Source: Escherichia coli
GTDB lineage: Bacteria > Pseudomonadota > Gammaproteobacteria > Enterobacterales > Enterobacteriaceae
DNA length: 64,000 nt
Strand: one strand, 5' to 3'
Assembly (NCBI RefSeq): GCF_003790525.1
Contig: NZ_CP033635.1
A program made the translations under genes and the position numbers. Under the pieces are notes generated by a model. That model was not told the DNA's origin. It made no database searches and worked only from the letters and a program-made list of their open reading frames with translations. This document shows, one piece after another, positions 236 through 27,445 of this stretch. How positions within the stretch are numbered: the first letter of the stretch is position 1; the number at the start of each line of letters is the position of its first letter.

Positions 236-544
236 AATGTTTGGAAACTAAAAATGTAACCAATGTTCCTAGGCTGGCCCCCTGAATCTCCAGACTCCCT
301 ATATCACTTAAATTGATACAACTTTTTAGAGTAGTCATTAGTGAACAGATAATTGATAACTCAGAACCAGTAAAATGCAAAAGACGCACCACGCTGGGAA
401 AATCGCTGCTATTCAGCAGAGTTTTGTATCGAGAATGGTGGCCAGCCACTTATTGCTCTCGCGTAAGCGGGTATCCCCATCGTTTACCAGTCCAGATATA
501 GGTCACGTCACCATACTTGATTTAGCTGTGTCACAGCTAAGCGC

Positions 545-1034
<490 letters not shown>

Positions 1035-1199
1035 TTATCTTGTCATTGTGGAAAGACCGACATCCATAGCTTTGGATGGTACCTGCCACCGTAAAGTTCT
1101 GGTTAACAACTAGTTGAGTGGATTCGCGTTTAAACTCTGCGCTGAAATTTCCTTTTTTCATTGGAGCATCTGTGTTGTTCTAAGGTGAGCATATTACCT

Positions 1200-1650
1200 A
1201 TGCTCAGGTGGCCAAATTCAGTATGCCAGAACCAGAACATCTTGTGGTCAGGCAGAGGAAGAGCAAACTGTTACTGGACTCACTGCATGCGTGGATGGTG
1301 GAGAAAAATGCCACGCTGTCCAAAAATCCAGACTGGGAGAATGGTTCAGCTGTGTACTGAATCAGTGGGGCGCACTCTGTTATTACAGTGTTGACGGTCA
1401 GGCGGAGGCAGACATAATGCCGCGGAAAAAGCCCTTTGTGCCATCTGTCTCGGAAATAAAAACTTTATGTTCTTCGACGGCGAGCGCAGTGCACTGTTGT
1501 ATGGGCTTATCGGCACTTGCCTTCTGAACGACATTGATCCGGAAGAGTATCTGCGCCATATCCTGAGCGTACTGCCGGAATAACCTTCCAACCGTATTGA
1601 TGAACTCCTGCCATGGAACGTAGTTCTCACCAATAAATAAGCATCAATAT
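1200..1650 (+). mobile_element. IS66-family transposase (TnpC) 3' remnant, frameshifted
   Basis: Frames give LLLDSLHAWMVEKNATLSKNP, GNKNFMFFDGERSALLYGLIGTCLLNDIDPEEYLRHILSVLPE and NRIDELLPWNV, matching the C-terminal region of IS66-family TnpC across at least two frameshifts. Confidence 0.5.
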
Positions 1651-1778
1651 GATTCTCCATTAACGCTTACCTTTTCTCAGGCTATTTTTGATTTTTTTTG
1701 CTTTTCCCCGCCACTTTATGGTGATTATCACATCAATATACATCGACAGATATTAACGTAACTGAAGTGAGGTGAAGC

Positions 1779-2993
1779 ATGAAATTTGAACGCCATCATG
1801 AAATATTGAAACGACTCAGTAAATTCGGTTCTGTAAAAGTATCCGATCTGTCCAATAGCCTCAATGTAACGAAAGAAACTATTCGATCAGATCTTAATGA
1901 ACTTGCCAGACTTGGCTATCTGACTCGATGTCATGGCGGTGCTTTTATCGTCCTAGACTCGCTTGATACTATTGCGAAAAATGAAATCGCTTATGCGCTT
2001 GAAAATTATGATACAGCCCAGGGAATAAAAAAAGGCCACTCAACTATGAAAAGTCAAGTATGCGTTATTGGTTCGTTTAATGTTGATATCATCAGTTATT
2101 TGCCGAGGCTTCCCACTATCGGAGAATCGCTTCTGGCAAGTAATTTTATATTTTCACCGGGGGGAAAAGGTTGTAACCAAGCGCTGGCAGCAAGCTTTGC
2201 CGATACTGATGTTTATTTCATAACAAAAGTAGGTACAGATCACTTTAGTGATTATGCGATCAACTTTATGAATTCGTCTAAGATTTATAAAAGTATAATT
2301 TATCAAACGAAAGAAACGCAAACCGGAACTGCCACGATCCTTGTTAATGAAGGTACTGGCGATAATGTTATTGCGATCTATCCCGGTGCCAACATGACAA
2401 TGTCGTCCGATGAAATAACTATTCAGAAAGAAGCGATTATTAATTCTGATGTCATACTTCTGCAGCTCGAAACAAATTATACCGCTCTGCAACAAGCGAT
2501 CACATTGGCGCAAAAAAACAGTATCCCGGTCATTATTAACCCGGCACCCTATAATGATATCGTCAACGAACTTATTCAGGATGTTGATTATATCACCCCC
2601 AATGAAACAGAAGCTGGTTTACTGTCCGGCATAGACGTACACGATCTTGAATCAGCTAAACGAGCTGCAGAAGCTATCCACAATAAAGGGGTAAAAAACA
2701 CGGTTATCACGCTCGGTAGCAAGGGCTCACTCGCATTTGATGGCAAAAAATTCATTCATTCGCCAGCGTTTCCAGCGGTCGTTAAAAATACGGCAGGAGC
2801 CGGGGATGCTTTTAACGGCGCTCTGGCATCAGGACTTGCGAAAGGAAAATCACTGGAATCAGCACTGTGTTATGCCAGTGCCTTTGCATCCCTGGCGGTG
2901 GAGACAAGCAATGCTTCCGACATGCCTGAACATGAATCTGTGATACATCGAATTCAGAGTATACATTATCAGCAAACTATTTTTACGCATTAA
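1779..2993 (+). CDS. DeoR-type HTH domain fused to PfkB/ribokinase-family sugar kinase
   Basis: 404-aa ORF; N-terminus HEILKRLSKFGSVKVSDLSNSLNVTKETIRSDLNEL is DeoR-like; C-terminus has PfkB features (GGKGCNQA, NTAGAGDAFNGALA). Confidence 0.75.
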   Translation: MKFERHHEILKRLSKFGSVKVSDLSNSLNVTKETIRSDLNELARLGYLTRCHGGAFIVLDSLDTIAKNEIAYALENYDTAQGIKKGHSTMKSQVCVIGSFNVDIISYLPRLPTIGESLLASNFIFSPGGKGCNQALAASFADTDVYFITKVGTDHFSDYAINFMNSSKIYKSIIYQTKETQTGTATILVNEGTGDNVIAIYPGANMTMSSDEITIQKEAIINSDVILLQLETNYTALQQAITLAQKNSIPVIINPAPYNDIVNELIQDVDYITPNETEAGLLSGIDVHDLESAKRAAEAIHNKGVKNTVITLGSKGSLAFDGKKFIHSPAFPAVVKNTAGAGDAFNGALASGLAKGKSLESALCYASAFASLAVETSNASDMPEHESVIHRIQSIHYQQTIFTH

Positions 2994-3006
2994 GAAGGGA
3001 CAGAGA

Positions 3007-3765
3007 ATGAATAACACCAAAAAATCACTAAAGGTGCTCTTTATTGGAGAATCCTGGCATATTCATATGATTCATTCAAAAGGATATGACAGTTTTACCT
3101 CAAGTAAATATGAAGAAGGTGCGACCTGGTTACTCCAATGTCTGAAAAATAGTCAGGTAGATGTCACCTATATGCCGGCACATACGGTACAAATTGCCTT
3201 CCCTGAAGATGTGGCACAGTTAGAACAATATGATGCCATCGTTATTAGTGATATTGGTAGTAATACTTTCCTGCTACAAAATGATACTTTTTATCAGCTT
3301 CGCATAAAACCAAACGCTCTCGAACTGATTAAAGAATATGTGAATAACGGTGGTGGGTTATTGATGATTGGCGGCTATCTCTCATTCATGGGAATTGAAG
3401 CAAAAGCCAATTATAAAAATACAGTTCTGGCTGATGTGCTCCCGGTTACGATGTTAGATGGTGACGATCGTGTCGAAAAACCAGAGGGTGTTATTGCACA
3501 GCCATCACAACCTGACCATCCGGTTATTAAAGGGTTCTCTGAATATCCTTTTTTCCTAGGTTATAACCGGGCGATCGCTAAAGAAAATGCTGAGGTGGTA
3601 TTAACAATAAACAACGATCCATTACTGGTCTTTGGTAACTATCACAACGGGAAAATAGCCTGCTTTATGAGTGACTGTTCACCGCACTGGGGTACACAGC
3701 AGTTTATGTCCTGGCCGTTCTATACCGCGTTGTGGGTAAATATACTGACTCATATTGCAAGATAA
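3007..3765 (+). CDS. Class I glutamine amidotransferase-like (ThuA/DUF1355-type) protein
   Basis: 252-aa ORF 14 bp after the upstream gene; motif NNGGGLLMIGGYLSF suggests a GATase1-like fold; family assignment tentative. Confidence 0.55.
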   Translation: MNNTKKSLKVLFIGESWHIHMIHSKGYDSFTSSKYEEGATWLLQCLKNSQVDVTYMPAHTVQIAFPEDVAQLEQYDAIVISDIGSNTFLLQNDTFYQLRIKPNALELIKEYVNNGGGLLMIGGYLSFMGIEAKANYKNTVLADVLPVTMLDGDDRVEKPEGVIAQPSQPDHPVIKGFSEYPFFLGYNRAIAKENAEVVLTINNDPLLVFGNYHNGKIACFMSDCSPHWGTQQFMSWPFYTALWVNILTHIAR

Positions 3766-3821
3766 TAATAATAATGGGGTAACACCAGTTACTCCATTTA
3801 CTATAATAGAAGGATTGATGT

Positions 3822-4787
3822 ATGAAAAAGAATAAGTACTCAACTCCCTTATGGATGCTTGCCACGATTCTTGCGGGTATGCTCTCCCCTATGCAATCAG
3901 CGGTGAATGGTCAATTAGGTCACTGGTTACAGGACGGTAATGCATGCGCAGTTATCTCCTTTGCCAGTGGTTTAGTCGTGATGTTTTTTATTATTATGGC
4001 GCGAAAAGAAACCCGGCAACAATTTGCGGCAATTCCTTCTCTGATTAAAAACCGAAAAGTTCCTCTCTGGAACTGGTTTGCCGGTCTCTGTGGAGCGATG
4101 GTGGTATTTTCTGAAGGCGCATCAGCCAGCGCACTCGGGGTCGCAACGTTTCAGACCGCACTGATCTCCGCGCTATTGCTGTCTGGTTTACTTTGCGATC
4201 GCTTTGGTATCGGTGTCGACGAGAAAAAATACTTTACCCCTTATCGCATCATCGGTGCATTATTTGCGGTTATTGCTACGATTTTTGTTGTGTCACCGCA
4301 GTGGCATTCTACCTCTTTCATTTTACTTGCCATTCTTCCGTTCTTAGCTGGTTTGCTTGCAGGATGGCAGCCCGCTGGAAATGCAAAAGTAGCTGAAGCT
4401 ACGGGATCCATGCTGGTTTCAATCACCTGGAATTTCATCGTTGGATTTTGTGTTTTAGGCACAGCGCTAGCTATTCGTGTCGCATTAGGGCACGTCACTG
4501 TTCAATTACCAGATGTCTGGTGGATGTATCTTGGCGGCCCGCTTGGACTAATGTCTATCGGTTTAATGGCCATTTTGGTCAGAGGTCTTGGGTTACTGAT
4601 GCTGGGGGTTGCTTCAACGGCGGGCCAGTTACTGGGATCAGTATTGATTGACGTATTAATTCCATCGCTGGGCAATACCGTTTATCTGGTCACGATCATC
4701 GGAACACTGTTTGCACTGGTCGGTGCAATTGTTACCACTATTCCGGAATACAGAGCCTCGAAAACAATGAAGAAAATGGAGGTATAA
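3822..4787 (+). CDS. Polytopic inner-membrane protein (tandem DUF606/YdcZ-like, DMT-superfamily-like)
   Basis: 321-aa ORF with about 10 hydrophobic segments and an internal two-fold repeat; RBS-like aggattg upstream. Confidence 0.6.
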   Translation: MKKNKYSTPLWMLATILAGMLSPMQSAVNGQLGHWLQDGNACAVISFASGLVVMFFIIMARKETRQQFAAIPSLIKNRKVPLWNWFAGLCGAMVVFSEGASASALGVATFQTALISALLLSGLLCDRFGIGVDEKKYFTPYRIIGALFAVIATIFVVSPQWHSTSFILLAILPFLAGLLAGWQPAGNAKVAEATGSMLVSITWNFIVGFCVLGTALAIRVALGHVTVQLPDVWWMYLGGPLGLMSIGLMAILVRGLGLLMLGVASTAGQLLGSVLIDVLIPSLGNTVYLVTIIGTLFALVGAIVTTIPEYRASKTMKKMEV

Positions 4788-4789
4788 TC

Positions 4790-5824
4790 ATGAAAGATTA
4801 TCTACAAACTGTGACGGGCCCCGTCGCCCGTGAAGATATGGGGCTAACACTTCCTCATGAACATCTGTTCAACGATCTTTCCTCTGTTGTGGATGCTCCT
4901 TGCTATCCTTTTTCACAACGGCTTGTTGATAAAAAAGTCACGGCAGAAATCCAGTGGGCATTAAAACACGATCCTTATTGCTGCGCTGATAATATGGACC
5001 GCAAACCTATTGAAGATGTGATCTTCGAAATTAATAACTTTATCTCGCTCGGTGGTCGCACCATTGTTGATGCCACAGGGTCTGAGTCTATCGGACGAGA
5101 TGCGCAGGCATTACGAGAAGTCGCATTAAAAACAGGTCTGAATATTGTTGCTTCCTCCGGTCCCTACCTGGAAAAATTTGAAAGCCAGAGAATTCATAAA
5201 ACGGTTGATGAACTAGCGACAACGATCGATAAAGAATTGAATCAAGGGATTGGCGATACGGATATTCGTGCCGGAATGATCGGTGAAATAGGTGTCTCAC
5301 CGACATTTACCGAAGCCGAGCATAACAGCTTGCGGGCTGCCTCGCTGGCACAGATTAACAATCCTCATGTGGCGATGAATATTCACATGCCGGGCTGGCT
5401 TCGTCGCGGTGATGAAGTACTCGACATTGTGTTAGGTGAAATGGGCGTCTCGCCAAATAAAGTCTCTCTCGCACACTCGGATCCGTCAGGAAAAGACGTG
5501 GCGTATCAGCGGAAAATGCTTGATAAAGGTGTCTGGCTGGAATTCGACATGATTGGCCTAGACATTACCTTCCCGAAAGAGGGAATAGCGCCAGGGGTGC
5601 AGGAGACTGCCGATGCCGTCGCTCATCTCATTGAGTTGGGATACGCCGATCAGCTTGTTCTCAGCCACGATGTCTTCCTTAAACAAATGTGGGCTAAAAA
5701 TGGCGGTAATGGCTGGGGATTTGTTCCAGATGTTTTTCTGGCCTATCTGGCGGAGCGCGGCGTCGATAAAACGATCCTCAAAAAACTCTGTATCGATAAT
5801 CCCGGACGATTATTGACCGCATAA
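4790..5824 (+). CDS. Phosphotriesterase-family (PTE/Php-like) metal-dependent hydrolase
   Basis: 344-aa ORF; N-terminal metal-binding motif TLPHEHL typical of the PTE family; starts 3 bp after the upstream gene. Confidence 0.8.
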   Translation: MKDYLQTVTGPVAREDMGLTLPHEHLFNDLSSVVDAPCYPFSQRLVDKKVTAEIQWALKHDPYCCADNMDRKPIEDVIFEINNFISLGGRTIVDATGSESIGRDAQALREVALKTGLNIVASSGPYLEKFESQRIHKTVDELATTIDKELNQGIGDTDIRAGMIGEIGVSPTFTEAEHNSLRAASLAQINNPHVAMNIHMPGWLRRGDEVLDIVLGEMGVSPNKVSLAHSDPSGKDVAYQRKMLDKGVWLEFDMIGLDITFPKEGIAPGVQETADAVAHLIELGYADQLVLSHDVFLKQMWAKNGGNGWGFVPDVFLAYLAERGVDKTILKKLCIDNPGRLLTA

Positions 5825-5833
5825 AACCATTAT

Positions 5834-5856
5834 CCCCCGGCACATTGCGCCGGGGG
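5834..5856. terminator. Hairpin between convergent PTE gene and ggt fragment
   Basis: cccccggc-acattgc-gccggggg perfect inverted repeat directly after the PTE stop. Confidence 0.4.
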
Positions 5857-5863
5857 ATGTCAA

Positions 5864-6202
5864 TTAATACCCCGCCGTTAAATCATCCACCAAGCGCGAG
5901 TCGGATGCGCCGTACAACTCACCATCCGACCCAACCATAATGCTTTGCGTGCTGCCCATCGCCTCATTCAGCGCCACTTTCTGACCTTTTGCTTCCAGCA
6001 GCTTGAGCGTATCCGGACTAAACCCTTTTCAACACGCAGCTCGTCCGGCAACCACTGATGGTGGAAACGAGGCGCATTGGTCGCTTCGGCAACATTCATT
6101 CCACAATTGATGCTGTTCACCACCATTTGCGGCACGGTAGTGATGATCCAGCTACCGGTAACAAAGTGAGTACATAAAGGCCATACTGTCACGAACAGTG
6201 CA
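5864..6202 (-). pseudogene. gamma-glutamyltranspeptidase (ggt-like) C-terminal fragment, truncated by ISL3-family insertion and frameshifted
   Basis: Minus-strand translation ...NAPRFHHQWLPDELRVEKG... and ...GSTQSIMVGSDGELYGASD...DDLTAGY-stop matches the GGT C-terminus; N-terminal ~80% is absent. Confidence 0.6.
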
Positions 6203-7936
6203 AAAGTGGCTCTTCCTCAACCTAGGTGAAGATTTTCATGCCAGTGGACTCATTACCCTCCGCCTAAGTAGTTCAAGTCCGGCTCGACCATACATCTGGC
6301 GTATCAGCACCTTCAGGCGATTTACATGACCTTCGACAACACCAGTACTCCAGCGACTGCTGATTGCCTCACATATAGCCGCAGCATCAGCTTCCATCCC
6401 CGCAGCTACGCACCGAAGTTCTGCTGAGCCGCTTTCGTGGACCCGAGTGAACCAGCTGCTTAGCTGTGATTTATTTTAGGTTTTCAGAATACGGTAGAAC
6501 TCGAGTACCAGTTGCTGCGCTATTTTCAACTCCGGTTCTTTTTCACACATCAGACTAATAAATCGGAAAGCATAATTTTCTCCACCCCTGATTATTCTCC
6601 AGGGCATCAACCAGCGGCTTACCCGGGACACTGAAGGAAGTCTTGCGGCAGTAGTAACCGGTGGGATCCAGCCTTTATGCCATTTGGCAACAGCATCCCT
6701 GACGATGGTTTCACTGCCTGTAACCCCCCTGGCCACCATTTCCCGCCATATCCGGCCGGAGTTATAATTACCACATTCTCGTTGCTCTTTTAACCACTCC
6801 CTCCATGGGTCCAGAAGCCCTCGCTTTGGAGGCCTGGTTGACATTTCAGGGAATGTTCCTGAACCCACCCAGCGACTGACTGTCACTCGCGACAGGCCTG
6901 TAATACGGGATATTTCCCTGAAACTACATCCCTTGTTATGCAGGGCCATAACCTCTGTCCAACGCTGATGCCGTTTTTTGCGGATGTGCTGTTTAAGGCG
7001 TTCCAGACGACGGAGCGATGCTACAGGCACAGATATTTCTGGCTCAGGTGATTTCTTCAGTGATAACTCTCTGACAACAAGACGTATCAGAGGCATATGT
7101 CTGTACATCATTCGTTCAGGCTCATCACCAATATTTTTTAGCAGGTGCCATCGATCGGCCACCTGTCTGGCCTGAGGTGCACCTTCACGTGCTGCTGTCG
7201 CATAGACTCCACTGCGATCACGCGAGACAACCTGTATTTCCGGATATTTTCTGAACCAGGTCGCCAGCGTACGCTGATCACGGCCGGGAAGCAGGACGAG
7301 GGGACGGTGAGTATCAGGATTGACTATTAACATACCGCAGCAGTGGCCCCGATGCCACGCCCACTCATCAATACCGACATGAGGCGCGCCTGACTGTTTC
7401 GTCTCCGGGGTATTGATAAGCCTGCGAAGAAGAGTATCAGCACTGCAACGGAGACCCACTGCCGTTGCAGCCCGTTTTCCAGCCTCACCTCCAGCTATTA
7501 ATCCCAGTTGACATTGTTAATTTTGTAACGCCTGTGAAGACTGCTGGTGTGAACTGGCGAAGGGAGCAAGCGACTCGGCAAAAATTTTACGTGAACAAGC
7601 CGGGTTACGGCAGTACCAGTGGCGGACGGAAAATACAAGCCATAGCGTCTGCCCTGAGCAGGGTAGATGCTGTATCCGGCGCCGACGACAACTATGAACA
7701 GAGTCGCTACGCTTAAAGCATTCAGGACATTGTGCTGTTTTGCGTTTTCCGTGGAGATGGAGGGTTATACCGTCAGAGCTAATAATTTGTCGACTGCATC
7801 GCCATCCGCAAGGTAACTGTAGAAGTGTCTTAAGAGAGTGCATTGCGTTGCCCATAACTTAAAACAGCTTAGATCCTTGTTCGCCAGAAAGTTTCATCCA
7901 TTTTCTTCCACCCAGGTTGCGGAAGAACCACTTTTC
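6203..7936 (-). mobile_element. ISL3-family insertion sequence (~1.73 kb) with ~30-bp imperfect terminal inverted repeats
   Basis: Left end aaaagtggctcttcctcaacctaggtg versus reverse complement of right end aaaagtggttcttccgcaacctgggtg (3 mismatches); internal ISL3-type transposase. Confidence 0.6.
6215..7855 (-). pseudogene. ISL3-family transposase, disrupted by at least two frameshifts
   Basis: Zn-finger N-terminus (7855-7517), DDE core GIDEWAWHRGH...SRDRSGVYATAAREGAPQARQVADRWHLLKN (7459-6476), and C-terminal STGVVEGHVNRLKVLIRQMYGRAGLELL in a third frame (about 6300-6215). Confidence 0.6.
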
Positions 7937-9963: not shown

Positions 9964-10164
9964 ATGGTGATACGCAAAAAGAAGTGCAGGGACTGTGGAA
10001 ACGCGATTACTCATAATACAGTGTGTTGCCCGTATTGTGGTTCTGTCGACCCCTTCGGCTATTACCGGAATACAGACCGTATCGTTACCATACTGCTGGC
10101 ACTGATTATTGTGGTCCTGCTGACTACTGTCAGCGTCAGTGTGTATATACTGTGTAGCTGGTGA
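9964..10164 (+). CDS. Small zinc-ribbon protein with C-terminal transmembrane helix
   Basis: CRDCG...CPYCG zinc ribbon followed by hydrophobic IVTILLALIIVVLLTTVSVSVYIL; strong SD gaggaggga immediately upstream. Confidence 0.4.
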   Translation: MVIRKKKCRDCGNAITHNTVCCPYCGSVDPFGYYRNTDRIVTILLALIIVVLLTTVSVSVYILCSW

Positions 10165-11117
10165 GATAACGGTTCATGTATCCCCTGAGCTGACAGTGTA
10201 CCGGGTATATTAAGCGTAACCGACAGGTTCTCCTTCATACCATATTAAATTTTTCCAGGTATTGCCGCTGCCTTATTTCGTCCCATACAGGAAAACTCGT
10301 CTGGGTTTCTGACAAATACGCGAAACTCACAGCCCCTCAATATCAACCACACGCTGTAAGCCGGTAATACCTGAAAATCAGCCTATTACCGCCCGCGCCT
10401 CCGTTACCGAACGCTCAGGTGACCAGACTGAAGCCCAGCACGCACTCGTAAAATTTGCGGTCAGTTCCGTCAGTCAGTGGGCAACCGCAGAGTTACGGGC
10501 TTCCAGGTCCACAGGAGTGAGTCTATAACGCGTGTGGGAAATCATTTTTTCTGGCGTTGACAGAACGCCTTACGGGCTGCTACTTACCCGGTGTCCCGCA
10601 ATACAGCCTTAGTGTTCCGTTATCGGGGATCCGGACGCACCGCAACAACCGGGGAAGTATTTCTGGTTAGAGCTGTGTCAAGAGGGATTTCTCAGCCCCT
10701 CACTCACCGGCTCAGTCTCAGGGCAGAAGCATTAATACACTCAGTTCATGTCTTATACAGGAATGGGCATAGGGGGAGCTGGCGTGTCACTGCTGATTTT
10801 ACGCATCAGCGTTCATGTATCTGCACTCTGATACAGAATGCTTCACAGCGCTCTGTTACCGGAGAGATTTACTCTCTTAGGTTATTCTGGCAAATCCTTT
10901 ACGTTACTCTCTGATGACTTCTTATATTTATAATACCAATCAGACAACCTTATCCCATCGGTGATATCAGTCTCCTGCTCGCCAGGAACGGGCTGACTCA
11001 CTGTAACCACCTCCGAAAACAACTCTGCAATTATCAGAACGCCTGCTTCTCTCCCTGTCCTCACGAAAACTATCCCCTCTTTATCGCGCGTGCGTGCGGA
11101 AGCATCTTTTCGCAACA

Positions 11118-11130
11118 CCCCCCCCCCCCC
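11118..11130. repeat. Homopolymeric C13 tract
   Basis: 13 consecutive C residues, about 165 bp upstream of the alpA-like start. Confidence 0.9.
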
Positions 11131-11294
11131 GGGATTCCGCTACGGCTCTGCCATCGCAATCCCCCCGTTTATCTCCGGACAGCCACATTCCCGATTATTT
11201 TTTACGTTTCTCCCCGGTTGTTATGCCGGTGAAGGTGGCGCGCTGTTTTCATGACCACACCGGCTGGTTTAACAACATCCGGAGGAACATTCTC

Positions 11295-11501
11295 ATGGCT
11301 ACCCCAGTTTCGCTGATGGATGACCAGATGGTCGACATGGCGTTTATCACTCAACTGACCGGCCTAACCGATAAGTGGTTTGACAAACTCATCAAAGATG
11401 GGGGCTTTCCTGCGCCCATCAAAATGGGGCGCAGCTCCCGCTGGCTGAAAAGTGAAGTGGAAGCCTGGCTGCAGGCGCGTATTGCACAGTCCCGTCCGTA
11501 A
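11295..11501 (+). CDS. alpA: AlpA-family prophage transcriptional regulator
   Basis: 69-aa product MATPVSLMDDQMVDMAFITQLTGLTDKWFDKLIKDGGFPAPIKMGRSSRWLKSEVEAWL matches the AlpA/Phage_AlpA HTH family; ggagg RBS 8 nt upstream. Confidence 0.7.
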   Translation: MATPVSLMDDQMVDMAFITQLTGLTDKWFDKLIKDGGFPAPIKMGRSSRWLKSEVEAWLQARIAQSRP

Positions 11502-11579
11502 TTTTTAACCACTAACCCTTCGCCCACAGCAGACGCAATCTCCGGCCTGCCGGCGGCGCTCTGCTGCCTGTTATCCCCC

Positions 11580-12197
11580 GTGAGGAATATGAAAATGAAA
11601 CAACAGTATCAGACCCGTTACGAGCTGCTCCATGAAAACTACCAGAAATGGCTGACCGGCTTCACCCGGCACGCCGTATCATGGGGCGTGTGTCATCCGA
11701 ATATCTACTATTTCCATAATCTGACGCCCGGGTGGGTGTCATTCAATGGCGAAAAACCGGAGATTGCCATCGTTCCCCAGAGTCTGCACCGGCTGATTTA
11801 TGGTCCGGACAAACGGAGCTCCCCGTCCCTGGATGATGATCTGGTGGTGAATTTATGCACCAGCGAACACCTGCTGGTTCATCATCCGATGCTGGAAGGG
11901 ATCCTGCTGTCTGAATGTGAGCGCCTGAAGCAACATTCTCTGGCAAACAAACTGATCAGCCTCTTCCGTCAGTTTGGCGGCACGGAGTTACGTCTCAAAC
12001 TGGTCTGGCTCTGCTGGCTTGACTTAATGACCGGAAACAGCCTTGACGACTGGACGAAAAACCTGAAACACAAATCAGAAAAAGATCTGGAGCAATGGAT
12101 CATTGCACGTCAGGGTCAGAGTGAACCACTGACAAATCTGATGGATCAGTACGTGCTTATGGCATACCGTACATCGGTTGATGCCGCTCACAGTTGA
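11580..12197 (+). CDS. Hypothetical prophage protein
   Basis: 205-aa ORF 78 bp downstream of the alpA-like gene, same strand; no family recognised; start ambiguous among several Met codons. Confidence 0.5.
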   Translation: MRNMKMKQQYQTRYELLHENYQKWLTGFTRHAVSWGVCHPNIYYFHNLTPGWVSFNGEKPEIAIVPQSLHRLIYGPDKRSSPSLDDDLVVNLCTSEHLLVHHPMLEGILLSECERLKQHSLANKLISLFRQFGGTELRLKLVWLCWLDLMTGNSLDDWTKNLKHKSEKDLEQWIIARQGQSEPLTNLMDQYVLMAYRTSVDAAHS

Positions 12198-12739
12198 TGT
12201 CTGAGAACCACAGGGCTGGCAGCAGAAAACCAGCCCTGTGGTAAAATACAGTAATAGCGGCGTACATCAGGCACGCCGCTCACTCGTCCACAGATCATAT
12301 ACGTCATTATACTGCGCGATAACGGAGGGCTTCAGCACCCGGTCATTTCTGAGCGGGTATGAATACCATTGATGATGCGAAGCAGCCACGTGCAGAAACG
12401 TTCTTCACAACCAGGTGCCTCCATCTTCACTGCAGTCTGAATGTGCCGGCTTGTTATCCACCAGAAATGGTATGCTCCGGTACATGCATACCCCGGAGAC
12501 TATAAACGCACTGAATCATAGCCTCCCACCTCAGCAGGAGGCAGTCAGCTTTCAGGCGGAAAAACGTTGCAGTTAAAGATCGTGAGAATCGCTGTTTCGT
12601 TGCATAGCAACCCGAACAGTTGTAGTGAAACATTTTACCTGCATCAGCACATGGTCAGGCGCCGTCTGTATGGCGTGGAATACTGATGTTTCGGCTGATG
12701 GCAAGCCTCATTCTGTACTGACCCCAAAAAGTTGGACAG

Positions 12740-13591
12740 TTAAACACGAGGCATATAGGTCTGATTCCGATATTCAATTGGAGTCAGACTTTTTAATTTC
12801 AGGCTAATTCTTCTGCTGTTGTAGTATTCAATATATTCCGTAACAGCATCCTTCAGTTCGCTTATATTACTGAACTCATCAAGATAAAAACACTCCGACT
12901 TTAAGGTTCCAAAGAAACACTCCACCACAGCATTATCCAGACAATTGCCTTTTCTGGACATGCTTTGTTTAATACCATGTTCTTTAAGAATATTTTGATA
13001 TTTTCTCATACGATACTGCCATCCCTGGTCAGAGTGCAGAACAGGATGCTCGTGAGGATTAAGCTTTTTGAATGCCTGATCGAGCATATTCTCAACCATG
13101 TTCATCACTGGTCTTTCCGAAAGGCTGTAAGAAATAACTTCGTTGTTGAAGAGATCTATTACTGGAGACAAATACAGCTTGCGCCCATTGACTGCAAATT
13201 CAGTAACATCGGTAACCCACTTCTCGTTTGGCCGCGTAGCCTTGAAATCTCTTTGGAGAACATTAGGGGCGGTTTGCCCTACCTCTCCTCTGTAAGAGCG
13301 GTATCGCTTGACCTTAATCGCTGCTTTAAGTGAGAGGGTTCCCATCAGGCGCTGAACAGCTTTATGGTTAATCTGTTTCCCTTCTCGATGAAGAGACAGC
13401 GTTACCCTACGGTATCCGTATCGGCCTCTATTCTCGTGATAAATCTCACCAATACGCTTTTTAACGTCCGCATACTTGTCAGGCTTGCTGAGAGCCTTTA
13501 GATGGTAATAAAACGTACTGCGCGGTATCTCCGCAGCCCTGAGAAGCTCATCAAGAGGATAAAACTGCCTTAGCTCGTTGAGTACTTTCAC
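12740..13591 (-). CDS. insK: IS150 transposase OrfB (InsK)
   Basis: 283-aa IS3-family DDE transposase; overlaps insJ by 4 bp as expected for the -1 frameshift fusion. Confidence 0.9.
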
Positions 13592-14109
13592 TTTTTCGTG
13601 GGATGAGCTAAGGCTTTCAGCTTTTTTAGATACATAAGCCGCGTTTCAAGAAATCGAACTTGCCTTTCAAGATCCTCAATACGTCGGTCTTTTGACAGCT
13701 CCAATGCTGATGCCGCTTTTTCTGGATCAACTGATATTGCAATGTTTCTTTTGGTGCCAATCTTGAGCGCGCGTAAACCAGCTTCTCCGCGCTCTTCATA
13801 AACCTTCAGCCACCTGGCTACAGAACCACTACCAGCAAGCATAAAGTGAGCAGCAGCCTGATTAAGGGACATGTGCTGCTCGATCACAGCTTTCACGACC
13901 TTAATACGCAACTCTGGATCAGCACTAACACCTTTAGGTTTGGGAATTAAACCTTTTTCTCCATGTTTTTCATAGAGGGCAACCCATGTCCTGACCTGGG
14001 TTCGGGGGACACCAAAACGTGCCGAGATGATCCTGTAACCATCATCAGTAGTGAAGTAGTGATTCACGACTTCAAGGCGCTTTTCAAAAGGGTATTTTGG
14101 CTTTGACAT
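13588..14109 (-). CDS. insJ: IS150 OrfA (InsJ)
   Basis: 173-aa product MSKPKYPFEKRLEVVNHYFTTDDGYRIISARFGVPRTQVRTWVALYEKHG... matches InsJ of IS150 as recalled. Confidence 0.9.
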   Translation of the reverse strand: MSKPKYPFEKRLEVVNHYFTTDDGYRIISARFGVPRTQVRTWVALYEKHGEKGLIPKPKGVSADPELRIKVVKAVIEQHMSLNQAAAHFMLAGSGSVARWLKVYEERGEAGLRALKIGTKRNIAISVDPEKAASALELSKDRRIEDLERQVRFLETRLMYLKKLKALAHPTKK

Positions 14110-14439
14110 ATCAGGGGCTATTCCATTTCATCGTCCAACAAAATGGGTGCAGTACATTCTCTGTGGAAACAGGGGCGCGCATTAGCTTCTCAACCAGAGA
14201 GTGTCACAAAGACAAATATTGCTGAAAATCGCATTCATCGTTCAGGCGTGAATGCCCGGAGACAAAAGCCGCTGTCCACACAGTCCCCCTCTGACCTGAA
14301 CAAAAAGCATACACACAACAGGCTCACCTGACCCCGAAAAACCATAACTTCAGCAATACCAGTGACACCAGCACGTTACCTCAGTGCCACATCTTCAGAC
14401 CGCGATCAATCTGAAATGTGACTATCGGGGCAATATCCC

Positions 14440-14720
14440 TGCTTTGTGGTACACGATAACCAGAAAACATCCCCTGAACCGCCAGCCAGAAAGACTGGCC
14501 ACAAAAGGGGTAAGCTGAAATCGTTTATGGATTACATCGACATATGCCTGGCAGAGAATGTCCGGAATGACGAGGTTATCTTTGCGGAGATTAAGGCAAT
14601 GGTATACGGGCCGACGTTCCATGCCGCGTTACTACATTCAGCCCGGACGTAAAATGCGCCCGTCAAAAAGAACGGTTCGCTTCGAAACTCAGCCAGGATA
14701 CCACCTCTCCGCCACACCCG
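14440..14720 (+). pseudogene. IS21-family istA 5' remnant
   Basis: Frames give EPPARKTGHKRGKLKSFMDYIDICLAENVRNDEVIFAEIKAMVYG and RYYIQPGRKMRPSKRTVRFETQPGY, matching the IstA N-terminus with a frameshift and loss of the rest. Confidence 0.5.
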
Positions 14721-16024
14721 GGAAGAAGTTGATATGGTGGTTGCCGGACAACAGCGCTCCTGGATTGACTGCTGCATCACTCAACCACGCTGAATATCAA
14801 AGGAGAGCGTTACCGGTTAAAAGAGAAACGTAAAGCTGTGGTGATGACCCAAAACGCAACGCCTGTCAGTGAGGATGAAATGGTGAAAAGCGGACAGCAT
14901 CAGTAACGGAAGTATCTTAGCGGGTACGAAAATGGCAGGATCGTGACATTGACAGAATATCTCCTGATCATCCTGAATGACTGCAGTTGCTGTAGAAAAG
15001 TAAGCTGTCTCCACCCACGGCACCACTTAACAGGCATTCCGTAACTTCCCCCAGACTTACTATGACGCATTATCGGTGCACTGAAAACGGGAGAGTGCGC
15101 TTAAAACCGCAGACCGCATGCGGGTGTTACTGCATGACAGTCTGGCCGTATTGTGAGATGTCGGCAGGAACCGATGTCCGCGCAGGGGGGAACTTCCTGC
15201 AGTACCTGACGCTTCAAATGGTATTAACCGTAGGGTGTTGTTGGTTCCGGATCGCGGAAATGGGAGCACAGGTCTGCTACGGGGTGTACCTCTGACAGTA
15301 AATCCGGCTCGCTCATCTGACAGCCTCTCTCCCGGAAAAGACCAAAAATGAGATCGTCTCCTCAACAGCAGAGAAGAGGTCTTGACAGACAGGCTACATT
15401 GCATACGATTTATGAAGAAAAAGACAGCAAATATGGAGGTTATAGCGGAGAATACCCTACGAAATTCCTATGAAAAACGATTGAAAAAAATATCAAATTC
15501 GATTCGTTTTTATATGCTTTTTGGGAGCGTGGCGATGACGAACTGTTGCATGTGCAGAGGAGAATGCACCCGGAAGCACCAGAATCATCCAGAAAGGCAG
15601 AACGATTACGCATCAAACCAGGAGACAGCAATATCAAGGTAATATACTGATTTAAAATGAATTTACAGCAATACGTGAAAACATTTTTTACTTAAAGGAG
15701 ACAGATGCGCTGAAGAGAGTGCAGGTATTTTTATATAAAAATGAGAAGTTTACGGGATGTATATCCGGCACACTATGACCGGAGAATATCAGTCAAGCTT
15801 AAAAAGACAATAAATACAGTGAGTTAAATACACAGAGAAAACGTAGTATCAGAGGGTACATCTTACAACAGAGACTGAATTTCCGGTTTTTCATAACCGG
15901 CGCATTCCGGAAAGTGCAGGCGGCCCGGAGGTTTTCTGACGCCACTACCTGGTAGATTGTTCTGTACATCATGTACGGAGGTTTTTGTTTGCTTTTTTAA
16001 AATCTGCAAATGTGAGAAAAGCAG

Positions 16025-17188
16025 GTGAGGTGTATTGTGGGAAAGGAACTGGATGATATCTGCACCAGCTGTCCGTATATCGATACTGTAAAACGGCACA
16101 AACAACAGCTCGGTGCCATAGAGGAATATACACAGTGGTTAAAAAAAGAACCACGGGCATCTTATTTTTTTCTGTTCCAGCTGTATACCCGCATTCACAA
16201 TACATTTTTCTCCCAAAAGCAACAACTCCCGTTCACTCCCGGTGGCACTCACTGCCCGGAACCTGATGTCACCCTTCGGGACTTAACGCTTTCCCCTGGC
16301 TACCACAGTGATTATGCCCCTCAACCCATTCCGGAGATGGACAGTTCTGCTGTTGTTCCCCCAACTAATGAAAACACCTCGCCTCCGGAAGATACTCCCG
16401 ACAACACTCCGGCCGGAGGCAATACCGGACAAGCGGAAAAGACCAGAAACGCAGGACTCACACCCATTCCTGAAAAACGTTCAGGAATGCCCCCGGAACA
16501 TCTGCGGTTTGCCACGGGGTTTCCATCGCAACCGAAGATTGCCGGTCCCAGAGAAAAGCCGATGCGCACCGTGCATCCGGATAAAATCTACCGTGAAATT
16601 ATATGGTTCTGCTCCAGTTACCTGCTGAAATCCGGACCAGAGGCTACGAGGACGATTATCAACTCAGTATTCTCTGAATGGGCCAGCATAAACAATGATT
16701 ACCCCTCCCCCTTTTCGTGGGTGGACAGCAGGGACAGTGAACAGTGTGACTGGTTATGGAACGCCATGCAGATCCGGTGTGTGGGAACCCCGCTGAATCC
16801 CCTTACCCCGGAGCAGAAATACTGGTTTGCCTGCGCCACGTTTGATAACTGGGAGGGCTGGAATGAGCAACAGGTACAGTTTTTACTGGAAAGTAATCCC
16901 AGACGGAACAGAGCGAAGTTTACGCAGGTCTCCTTCCAGGCCCCCAGGATTCAGCATAAAGCGATTCTTCTTGATGAGCTGAAAAGTGCCCGGGAGCAAC
17001 AAAAAAGGCGTGATGAACGTGCTGATGGTTCCGTCCCTCTGAAACTGTCCGGAAAAATCCACAAACAGCTTGAAAGTATTGCCCGAAGTCGTGGTGTCCT
17101 CCCAAAAAAACTGCTGAATGAAATGATTGAGCAGGCGTACCATGATTTGGTGGCAACCAGGCAGAACAGCCAAATCGATTCCAGATAA
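16025..17188 (+). CDS. Hypothetical protein with Pro/Thr-rich linker and possible C-terminal ribbon-helix-helix segment
   Basis: 387-aa ORF with GTG start (uncertain); low-complexity PPTNENTSPPEDTPDNTPAGG; C-terminal KLSGKIHKQLESIARSRGVLPKKLLNEMIEQAYHDL resembles an RHH DNA-binding motif. Confidence 0.4.
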   Translation: MRCIVGKELDDICTSCPYIDTVKRHKQQLGAIEEYTQWLKKEPRASYFFLFQLYTRIHNTFFSQKQQLPFTPGGTHCPEPDVTLRDLTLSPGYHSDYAPQPIPEMDSSAVVPPTNENTSPPEDTPDNTPAGGNTGQAEKTRNAGLTPIPEKRSGMPPEHLRFATGFPSQPKIAGPREKPMRTVHPDKIYREIIWFCSSYLLKSGPEATRTIINSVFSEWASINNDYPSPFSWVDSRDSEQCDWLWNAMQIRCVGTPLNPLTPEQKYWFACATFDNWEGWNEQQVQFLLESNPRRNRAKFTQVSFQAPRIQHKAILLDELKSAREQQKRRDERADGSVPLKLSGKIHKQLESIARSRGVLPKKLLNEMIEQAYHDLVATRQNSQIDSR

Positions 17189-26792: not shown

Positions 26793-26880
26793 CTCTCCAG
26801 AATAGCCTTCTGCTACGGCCTGGTGTTTTCACCACGCCACTTTTCCATTTTTATATCTGCATATCAGGAAAATCTTCAGT

Positions 26881-27254
26881 ATGAAAACATTACCTGTATT
26901 ACCCGGGCAGGCGGCCAGTTCTCGCCCGTCTCCTGTTGAAATCTGGCAGATACTGCTGTCCCGACTGCTGGACCAGCACTATGGCCTCACACAGAATGAC
27001 ACACCTTTTGCCGATGAACGTGTGATTGAGCAGCATATTGAGGCAGGCATTTCACTGTGTGATGCGGTGAACTTTCTCGTGGAAAAATACGCGCTGGTGC
27101 TACCGACCAGCCGGGATTCAGCGCCTGTACCCGCTCTCAGTTAATAAACAGCATCGATATCCTCCGGGCTCGCAGGGCGACCGGCCTGATGACCCGCGAC
27201 AATTACAGAACGGTAAATAACATTACCCTGGGTAAGTATCCGGAGGCGAAATGA
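26881..27254 (+). pseudogene. cbtA: Toxin CbtA (YeeV), frameshifted
   Basis: First 73 residues match CbtA, then the frame ends at 27144; the expected C-terminus INSIDILRARRATGLMTRDNYRTVNNITLGKYPEAK is in another frame (27150-27254); consistent with a single-base deletion near 27103. Confidence 0.8.
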
Positions 27255-27445
27255 TGACACTGGAAGCCGACAGCGTTAACGTACAGGCGCTGGATATGGG
27301 GCACATTGTCGTTGACATTGATGGTGTTAATATCACTGAACTGATTAATAAGGCCGCTGAAAACGGTTATTCACTCCGCGTGGTGGATGACCGTGACTCT
27401 ACCGAAACACCGGCAACTTATGCCAGCCCTCACCAGTTGCTGTAA
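27251..27445 (+). CDS. yeeW: YeeW-like small protein
   Basis: 64-aa ORF overlapping the cbtA stop, in the position of K-12 yeeW. Confidence 0.45.
   Translation: MMTLEADSVNVQALDMGHIVVDIDGVNITELINKAAENGYSLRVVDDRDSTETPATYASPHQLL

Follow-up and report, generated by a model that had tools for sequence, protein, structure and literature searches.

The IS150 Locus and Its Genes

The window, as the whole stretch of 64,000 nt analyzed here is called, carries a genomic island at the position of the CP4-44 cryptic prophage of K-12, bounded by cobU and the asn-tRNA genes at one end and by yeeA-sbmC-dacD-sbcB at the other. A single copy of IS150 is found in the window, inside this island (Table 1). To its left are the genes for an AlpA-family regulator and a hypothetical protein, the latter matching neither Pfam nor NCBIfam. 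To its right is the remnant of an IS21 element, followed by genes for a GTPase, a dynamin-family protein, RdcB, a patatin and a DUF932 protein, an antirestriction gene and yeeS-yeeT-cbeA-cbtA. In the matching genomes KFu014, SMS-3-5 and APEC O1, the annotation gives a frameshifted cbtA toxin gene (~26880-27260) and an intact cbeA antitoxin gene. Upstream of the AlpA gene, at ~470-7860 of the window, fragments of a transposase and of IS66, together with an ISL3 pseudogene that has an internal stop, flank a small metabolic cluster consisting of a PfkB kinase, a glutamine amidotransferase, a DMT transporter and a phosphotriesterase-related protein.

Table 1. Features of the IS150 insertion and its immediate surroundings, in window coordinates.
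Feature	Position	Strand	Evidence
AlpA-family regulator gene, 68 aa as annotated	11295..11501	+	Pfam Phage_AlpA, E 7e-5; PGAP "AlpA family transcriptional regulator"
Hypothetical 200-aa gene, last annotated before the insertion	11595..12197	+	PGAP annotation
AGCCTCA, fitting the IS150 target-site motif, immediately ahead of the IRR-side duplication	12704..12710	+	Insertion-site comparison
Target-site duplication TTC, IRR side	12711..12713		Direct reading; empty site with one TTC
IS150, complete, 1443 bp	12714..14156	-	Direct reading; 99.3% identity to K-12 IS150
Right terminal inverted repeat (IRR)	12714..12744		31-nt arm, 71% complementary to IRL
insK (OrfB), 283 aa, DDE catalytic domain	12740..13591	-	Pfam rve, E 5e-29; NCBIfam transpos_IS3, E 7e-104
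Predicted stem-loop 3' of the slippery site (GCCUUAGCUC / GAGCUAAGGC)	13567..13614	-	Predicted fold -22 kcal/mol, z -3.0
insJ (OrfA), 173 aa, helix-turn-helix DNA-binding protein	13588..14109	-	Pfam HTH_28, E 4e-23; identical to K-12 InsJ
Slippery heptamer A AAA AAG, -1 frameshift	13621..13627	-	In insJ frame; fusion reads through
Left terminal inverted repeat (IRL)	14126..14156		31-nt arm, 71% complementary to IRR
Target-site duplication TTC, IRL side	14157..14159		Direct reading; empty site with one TTC
IS21-family istA fragment, frameshifted, incomplete at both ends	14469..14752	+	PGAP "IS21 family transposase" pseudogene
IS21-family istB C-terminal fragment	14769..14906	+	NF006616 IstB, E 2.3e-6; Pfam IstB_IS21, E 5e-4

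The element starts with TGTACTGACC (12714) and ends with GTGCAGTACA (14156), its termini reading TGTACTG and CAGTACA. A preliminary description of this DNA had reported a complete IS150 of 1443 bp with these ends, and direct reading returned exactly the same coordinates; on re-inspection, the flanking triplet was TTC on both sides. The insJ and insK genes overlap by 4 nt, and a -1 shift at the A AAA AAG heptamer gives a 456-aa InsJK transposase, which is the length of the joined coding sequence annotated by PGAP. The stem-loop beyond the slippery site has a perfect 10-bp stem, and its sequence is the same in K-12. InsK scores 348 bits against the NCBIfam transpos_IS3 model (cut-off 160) and contains two stretches, of 17 and 10 residues, that would carry D, D, E and K, judging from what is known of the IS3 family. 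Many RefSeq genomes have copies 100% identical to this IS150, for which the PGAP product name is "IS3-like element IS150 family transposase"; a programmed frameshift is noted and no pseudogene flag is set.

The K-12 element, described by Schwartz, Kroger and Rak in 1988 according to the reference list of PMC1525189, served as the reference in the form of the MG1655 copy (NC_000913, 3720633-3722075; insJ/insK, b3557/b3558). The window copy is identical to it at 1433 of 1443 positions, with 10 substitutions and no indels. One of the substitutions is in the 5' leader, four are in insJ and all of these are silent, and five are in insK, two of them silent and three causing the replacements S48G, R197K and G268S in InsK. 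The alignment revealed no stops or frameshifts in either gene, which bears out the earlier reading of insJ and insK as overlapping and intact. The sum of six synonymous, three non-synonymous and one non-coding change fits, as a sequence pattern, with two lineages that may have diverged while being selected to work. The element is confirmed as IS150, a member of the IS3 family and its IS150 group.

To judge from these comparisons, the window IS150 retains every part that transposition requires, namely the two inverted repeats, OrfA and OrfB, and the frameshift site followed by its stem-loop, and it would presumably have the capacity to transpose. An intact element of this kind could be active, but its intactness is not proof that it is.

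The neighboring IS21 remnant is likewise real, as the preliminary description had held when it pointed to an eroded istA fragment. In a tblastn search against plasmids, a 68-aa ORF at 14446-14652 is 80% identical to annotated istA genes, one of them in Yersinia pestis, across a stretch of 45 aa (residues 10-54), and the 284 bp of the fragment are 88% identical to plasmid istA at the DNA level. The IstA fragment was missed by Pfam and NCBIfam HMM scans and detected by tblastn against plasmids. The IstB piece that comes after it corresponds to the last ~27 residues of the protein (positions 226-252 of 253 in the NF006616 model). The insertion had been placed between the AlpA-like module and this remnant, and it does lie between the AlpA-family and hypothetical genes on one side and the remnant on the other, but not directly beside the latter: the remnant starts 313 bp from the end of IS150, and the two therefore do not abut. 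In some of the genomes that carry the IS150 (ECONIH1, L098), an IS2 is present within the IstA remnant at 14671-14676, 515 bp to the right of IS150.

The Empty Site

An empty-site construct of 1200 bp was made by joining the 600 bp of left flank that end in TTC to the 600 bp of right flank that follow the second TTC. Strain AH50 was found to match this construct at 100%, unbroken. Read base by base, the AH50 site is ...agcctcaTTCtctgtgg..., with a single TTC, and in a longer reading the junction is ...ggcaagcctcaTTCtctgtggaaacagg.... In ~1,315 complete E. coli genomes, a single unbroken match covers at least 80% of the construct. A 3-bp match between flanks has a 1/64 chance of arising at random; the uninterrupted site with one TTC shows that the 3-bp duplication is real and that it resulted from a clean transposition event. 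The duplication proposed in the preliminary description is thus genuine.

The genomes with an empty site have no annotated gene at the insertion point, which lies within an unannotated gap of 830 bp between the hypothetical 200-aa gene and the IS21 remnant. As no annotated gene is disrupted, the insertion is probably close to neutral. A mechanically called ORF of ~87 aa (GTG at 12625; 12625-12713 joined to 14160-14331) spans the insertion point of the empty site in frame and is split by IS150. This ORF is left unannotated by PGAP in every genome checked, and its tail taken by itself (62 aa, 14143-14331) has no Pfam match. Rfam scans of window positions 10000-17000 and of the AH50 empty site returned only sub-threshold microRNA noise, with no RNA gene evident at the target.

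Distribution and Age of the Insertion

A survey of IS150 copy number and of this junction, which the preliminary description had proposed as a check, covered 5,426 complete E. coli genomes. IS150-like sequence is present in 2,864 of them, the median number of places per genome being 2 and the highest 14. The left junction of the window insertion was found in 139 genomes; in 135 genomes the complete element is present together with the flanks on its two sides. Among the occupied genomes are SMS-3-5, APEC O1 and the type strain, DSM 30083 (= ATCC 11775). Each occupied genome has IS150 at 1-4 places, with a single place listed for ATCC 11775 and for APEC O1. Over 32.8 kb, SMS-3-5 is 99.985% identical to the window. 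For APEC O1 the identity is 99.48%; it has a single difference within IS150 and 11 in the surrounding 6 kb, and its adjacent core genes are ~0.8% divergent from those of the window, so that the insertion is common to lineages that are not closely related at this locus.

The 10 positions at which the window and K-12 copies differ were used to haplotype IS150 in E. coli genomes, in species-representative genomes and in 69 metagenome contigs; the scan of species-representative genomes yielded 6 loci and the metagenome scan 69. The full 10-position haplotype of the window was seen only at the island site. The ~30 other sites in the comparison, each with at least one informative position, were K-12-like or mixed. 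The index of a public assembly collection lists the exact InsK variant in 1,730 blocks, and all 28 of the contigs read for context, which came from the 24 blocks with the longest contigs, share the island neighbors. The eight places shown for exact InsK have the window flanks and differ by 0-1 nt, save for one with a 1-nt indel. No daughter copies with the window haplotype were seen at the ~30 other haplotyped sites or in the 28 exact-InsK contigs, although rare daughter copies may occur in occupied genomes.

In GCA_900622695.1 the element is 1444 bp long, and a 1-nt indel leaves an InsJ of 128 aa, so that at least one lineage has an element that has started to decay. IS150 ends were also encountered in assemblies of unrelated organisms, namely a 454-bp contig of Methylobacillus sp. 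MM3 and a Bacillota MAG. The flank on the Methylobacillus contig is that of the K-12 hokA side except for one base, and the contig looks like E. coli contamination.

This distribution bears directly on the suggestion of the preliminary description that the insertion is recent and probably active. The perfect duplication, the intact ORFs, frameshift site and inverted repeats, and the existence of an empty site with 100% identical flanks all agree with a recent jump of an IS150 currently active in this strain, and IS150 is known to be very active in E. coli B, where it accounted for 68 of the 83 IS events recorded across three populations of the LTEE (PMC11708052). However, the same insertion is shared by 135-139 complete genomes, among them the lineages with divergent core genes, and its haplotype is confined to the island site. 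Moreover, movement of the K-12 IS150 is rare, making up 2 of the 758 events seen in mutation-accumulation lines (PMC5009759), so that intactness does not imply activity. The idea of a recent insertion is largely refuted by the distribution and is considered very improbable. The insertion appears instead to be old and inherited, and transposition activity is not supported by the sequence distribution.

The shared insertion most likely has a single origin. In the sequence right next to the site, strain AH50, where the site is empty, is closer to the window than the occupied APEC O1; this indicates either recombination in the history of the site or an insertion that is young relative to the island.

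A Possible Target-Site Preference of IS150

BLAST matches to unrelated IS150 copies extended ~10 bp into the flank of the window, which prompted a comparison of insertion sites. Five of the six IS150 copies taken from the ranked hit list (L009-L014) adjoin hok-family type I toxin genes and the sixth adjoins ibsA, in either orientation. At all of the sampled sites with a duplication, the IRR-side flank ends in AGCCTCA, AGCCTCT or AGCCCTC directly before the duplication. The heptamer at the window site (AGCCTCA followed by TTC) is identical to that at the hokA site (AGCCTCA followed by CTT).

Among 50 distinct sites, positions -9 to -4 have G (38 sites), C (42), C (38), T/C (44), C (30) and A/G (40). 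The motif GCC[TC]C[AG] is present in exact register at 28 of these 50 sites, compared with 0.04 expected from the composition of the window, with many of the sites being hok paralogues and hence not fully independent in sequence. After a crude hok filter, it was still present at 17 of the 31 other sites. The IRL flank could be read at 15 sites, and no mirror motif was present there at any of them. Two de novo IS150 insertions in REL606, at 16,972 and 16,989 (hokC/nhaA; PMC5419217), fit the motif on opposite strands; the REL606 positions 582,237, 1,272,468 and 1,464,061/678 were omitted from this comparison, as they fall inside cusA, chaB, trg and ydcI, contrary to the locus names in PMC5419217. 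Hok/sok loci have been described as hot spots for the insertion of mobile elements (10.1101/527788; PMC5419217).

The hok-adjacent IS150 insertion point coincides with the 5' arm of the Sok terminator hairpin, and at the hokA site copy L014 is flanked by what looks like a duplication of 5 bp, CACTT, in place of 3 bp. A terminator-like hairpin was considered as the target and rejected: several of the motif-bearing sites lack a complementary downstream arm, which makes sequence a likelier determinant than structure. A degraded hok/sok locus as the target was likewise rejected: in tblastn with five Hok queries and short-word blastn against hokA and hokC, the only sequence in common was the 7-mer AGCCTCA. 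A resemblance of the motif to the inverted repeats of IS150 was judged by eye to be too weak to claim; IS911 targeting provides the analogy here, as a case of targets that resemble the ends of the IS.

Tentatively, and with the odds rather against it, IS150 may be proposed to choose its targets by sequence and in one orientation, with R-G-C-C-Y-C-R directly preceding the IRR-side duplication and no mirror image of it on the IRL side. Such a rule would explain both the island site and the well-known pile-ups at hok/sok and further type I toxin loci, where the motif makes up the 5' arm of the Sok terminator, the pile-ups then reflecting a target preference and not selection for toxin inactivation. 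An insertion preference of IS150 is mentioned in passing in PMC10379815. No description of the R-G-C-C-Y-C-R motif was found in the searchable literature; ISfinder or older subscription papers may have it. The preliminary description had called this part of the island a repeated IS target. This is loosely true, given the IS2 in the IstA remnant and the ISL3 and IS66 remnants upstream, but the exact spot appears to be better explained by the IS150 motif than by a region that is generally prone to IS insertion.

A preferred target also raises the question of whether different lineages acquired the island insertion independently, by recurrent jumps into a motif-matching hot spot. The window site is a perfect match to the motif, the hokA position bears both 3-bp and apparent 5-bp duplications, and de novo events have been recorded at hokC (PMC5419217). 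However, all of the occupied copies examined share the same orientation, the TTC and the rare 10-site haplotype, and apart from the one with the indel they differ by no more than a single nucleotide. Independent donors would mostly have supplied the common type, as the other sites are K-12-like or mixed. Recurrent insertion has only a slight chance of being correct, and a single event is preferred.

Proposed History of the Insertion

The explanation held with high confidence is that a single IS150 insertion took place in non-coding DNA of the CP4-44-position island and was later passed on with the island, with no further jump seen. IS150 would have inserted once into the unannotated 830-bp stretch, at a site consisting of AGCCTCA plus 3 nt that matches its putative preferred target. 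The usual 3-bp staggered cut at integration would have left TTC on both sides. The route of transposition would presumably be of the copy-out-paste-in type, using the OrfAB protein produced by frameshifting at A AAA AAG. Either by descent or by recombination, the insertion would then have been carried along with the island to about 1/10 of the genomes that have this island segment.

The element itself is known, and its position is already annotated in APEC O1, SMS-3-5 and the E. coli type strain. The insertion can serve as a stable presence/absence marker for one version of the CP4-44-position island, the site being occupied in ~135 genomes and empty in ~1,315. It also illustrates that a perfect duplication and intact genes do not by themselves mark an insertion as recent or active. 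The strong, one-sided motif, if true, would help in predicting the landing sites of IS150 in engineered strains and in evolution experiments, and would alter how recurrent insertions at toxin-antitoxin loci are read.

Comparison with Known Systems

The window element shares with the IS150 of K-12 its length of 1443 bp, its ends, gene layout, frameshift site and stem-loop, and the InsJ protein. The two differ in their surroundings. The K-12 copy is located at hokA/sokA and lacks a flanking duplication, having GTT on one side and TAC on the other, whereas the window copy is located in the island with a clean TTC duplication. The lack of a duplication is shared by the K-12 copy (L001, 634-2076) and that of strain M160133, which have GTT or GTC on one side and TAC on the other, and suggests a later rearrangement at hokA/sokA.

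Compared with the IS150 insertions at type I toxin loci (hok/sok, ibs and ldr), the window site has the same AGCCTCA before the IRR-side duplication as the hokA hot spot, but no homology to hok/sok loci beyond this heptamer. The IS21 family is represented in the window by a frameshifted remnant of ~440 bp from which both ends and most of istA and istB are gone, a relic rather than an element.

With IS911 and the IS3 family in general, the window element has in common the OrfA and OrfB proteins, an OrfAB fusion made by -1 frameshifting, a DDE (rve) domain, TG...CA ends and a 3-bp duplication, but it belongs to a different subgroup from IS911, the IS150 group. The frameshifting rate of IS150 has been given as ~50% (PMC10379815), and the element is described as generating a 3-bp duplication and following the copy-and-paste route of the IS3 family (PMC11708052). 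In the IS911/IS3 model, transposition proceeds by copy-out-paste-in via a circular intermediate (PMC11708052, PMC10379815), and by family membership the same pathway would be expected for the IS150 of the window.
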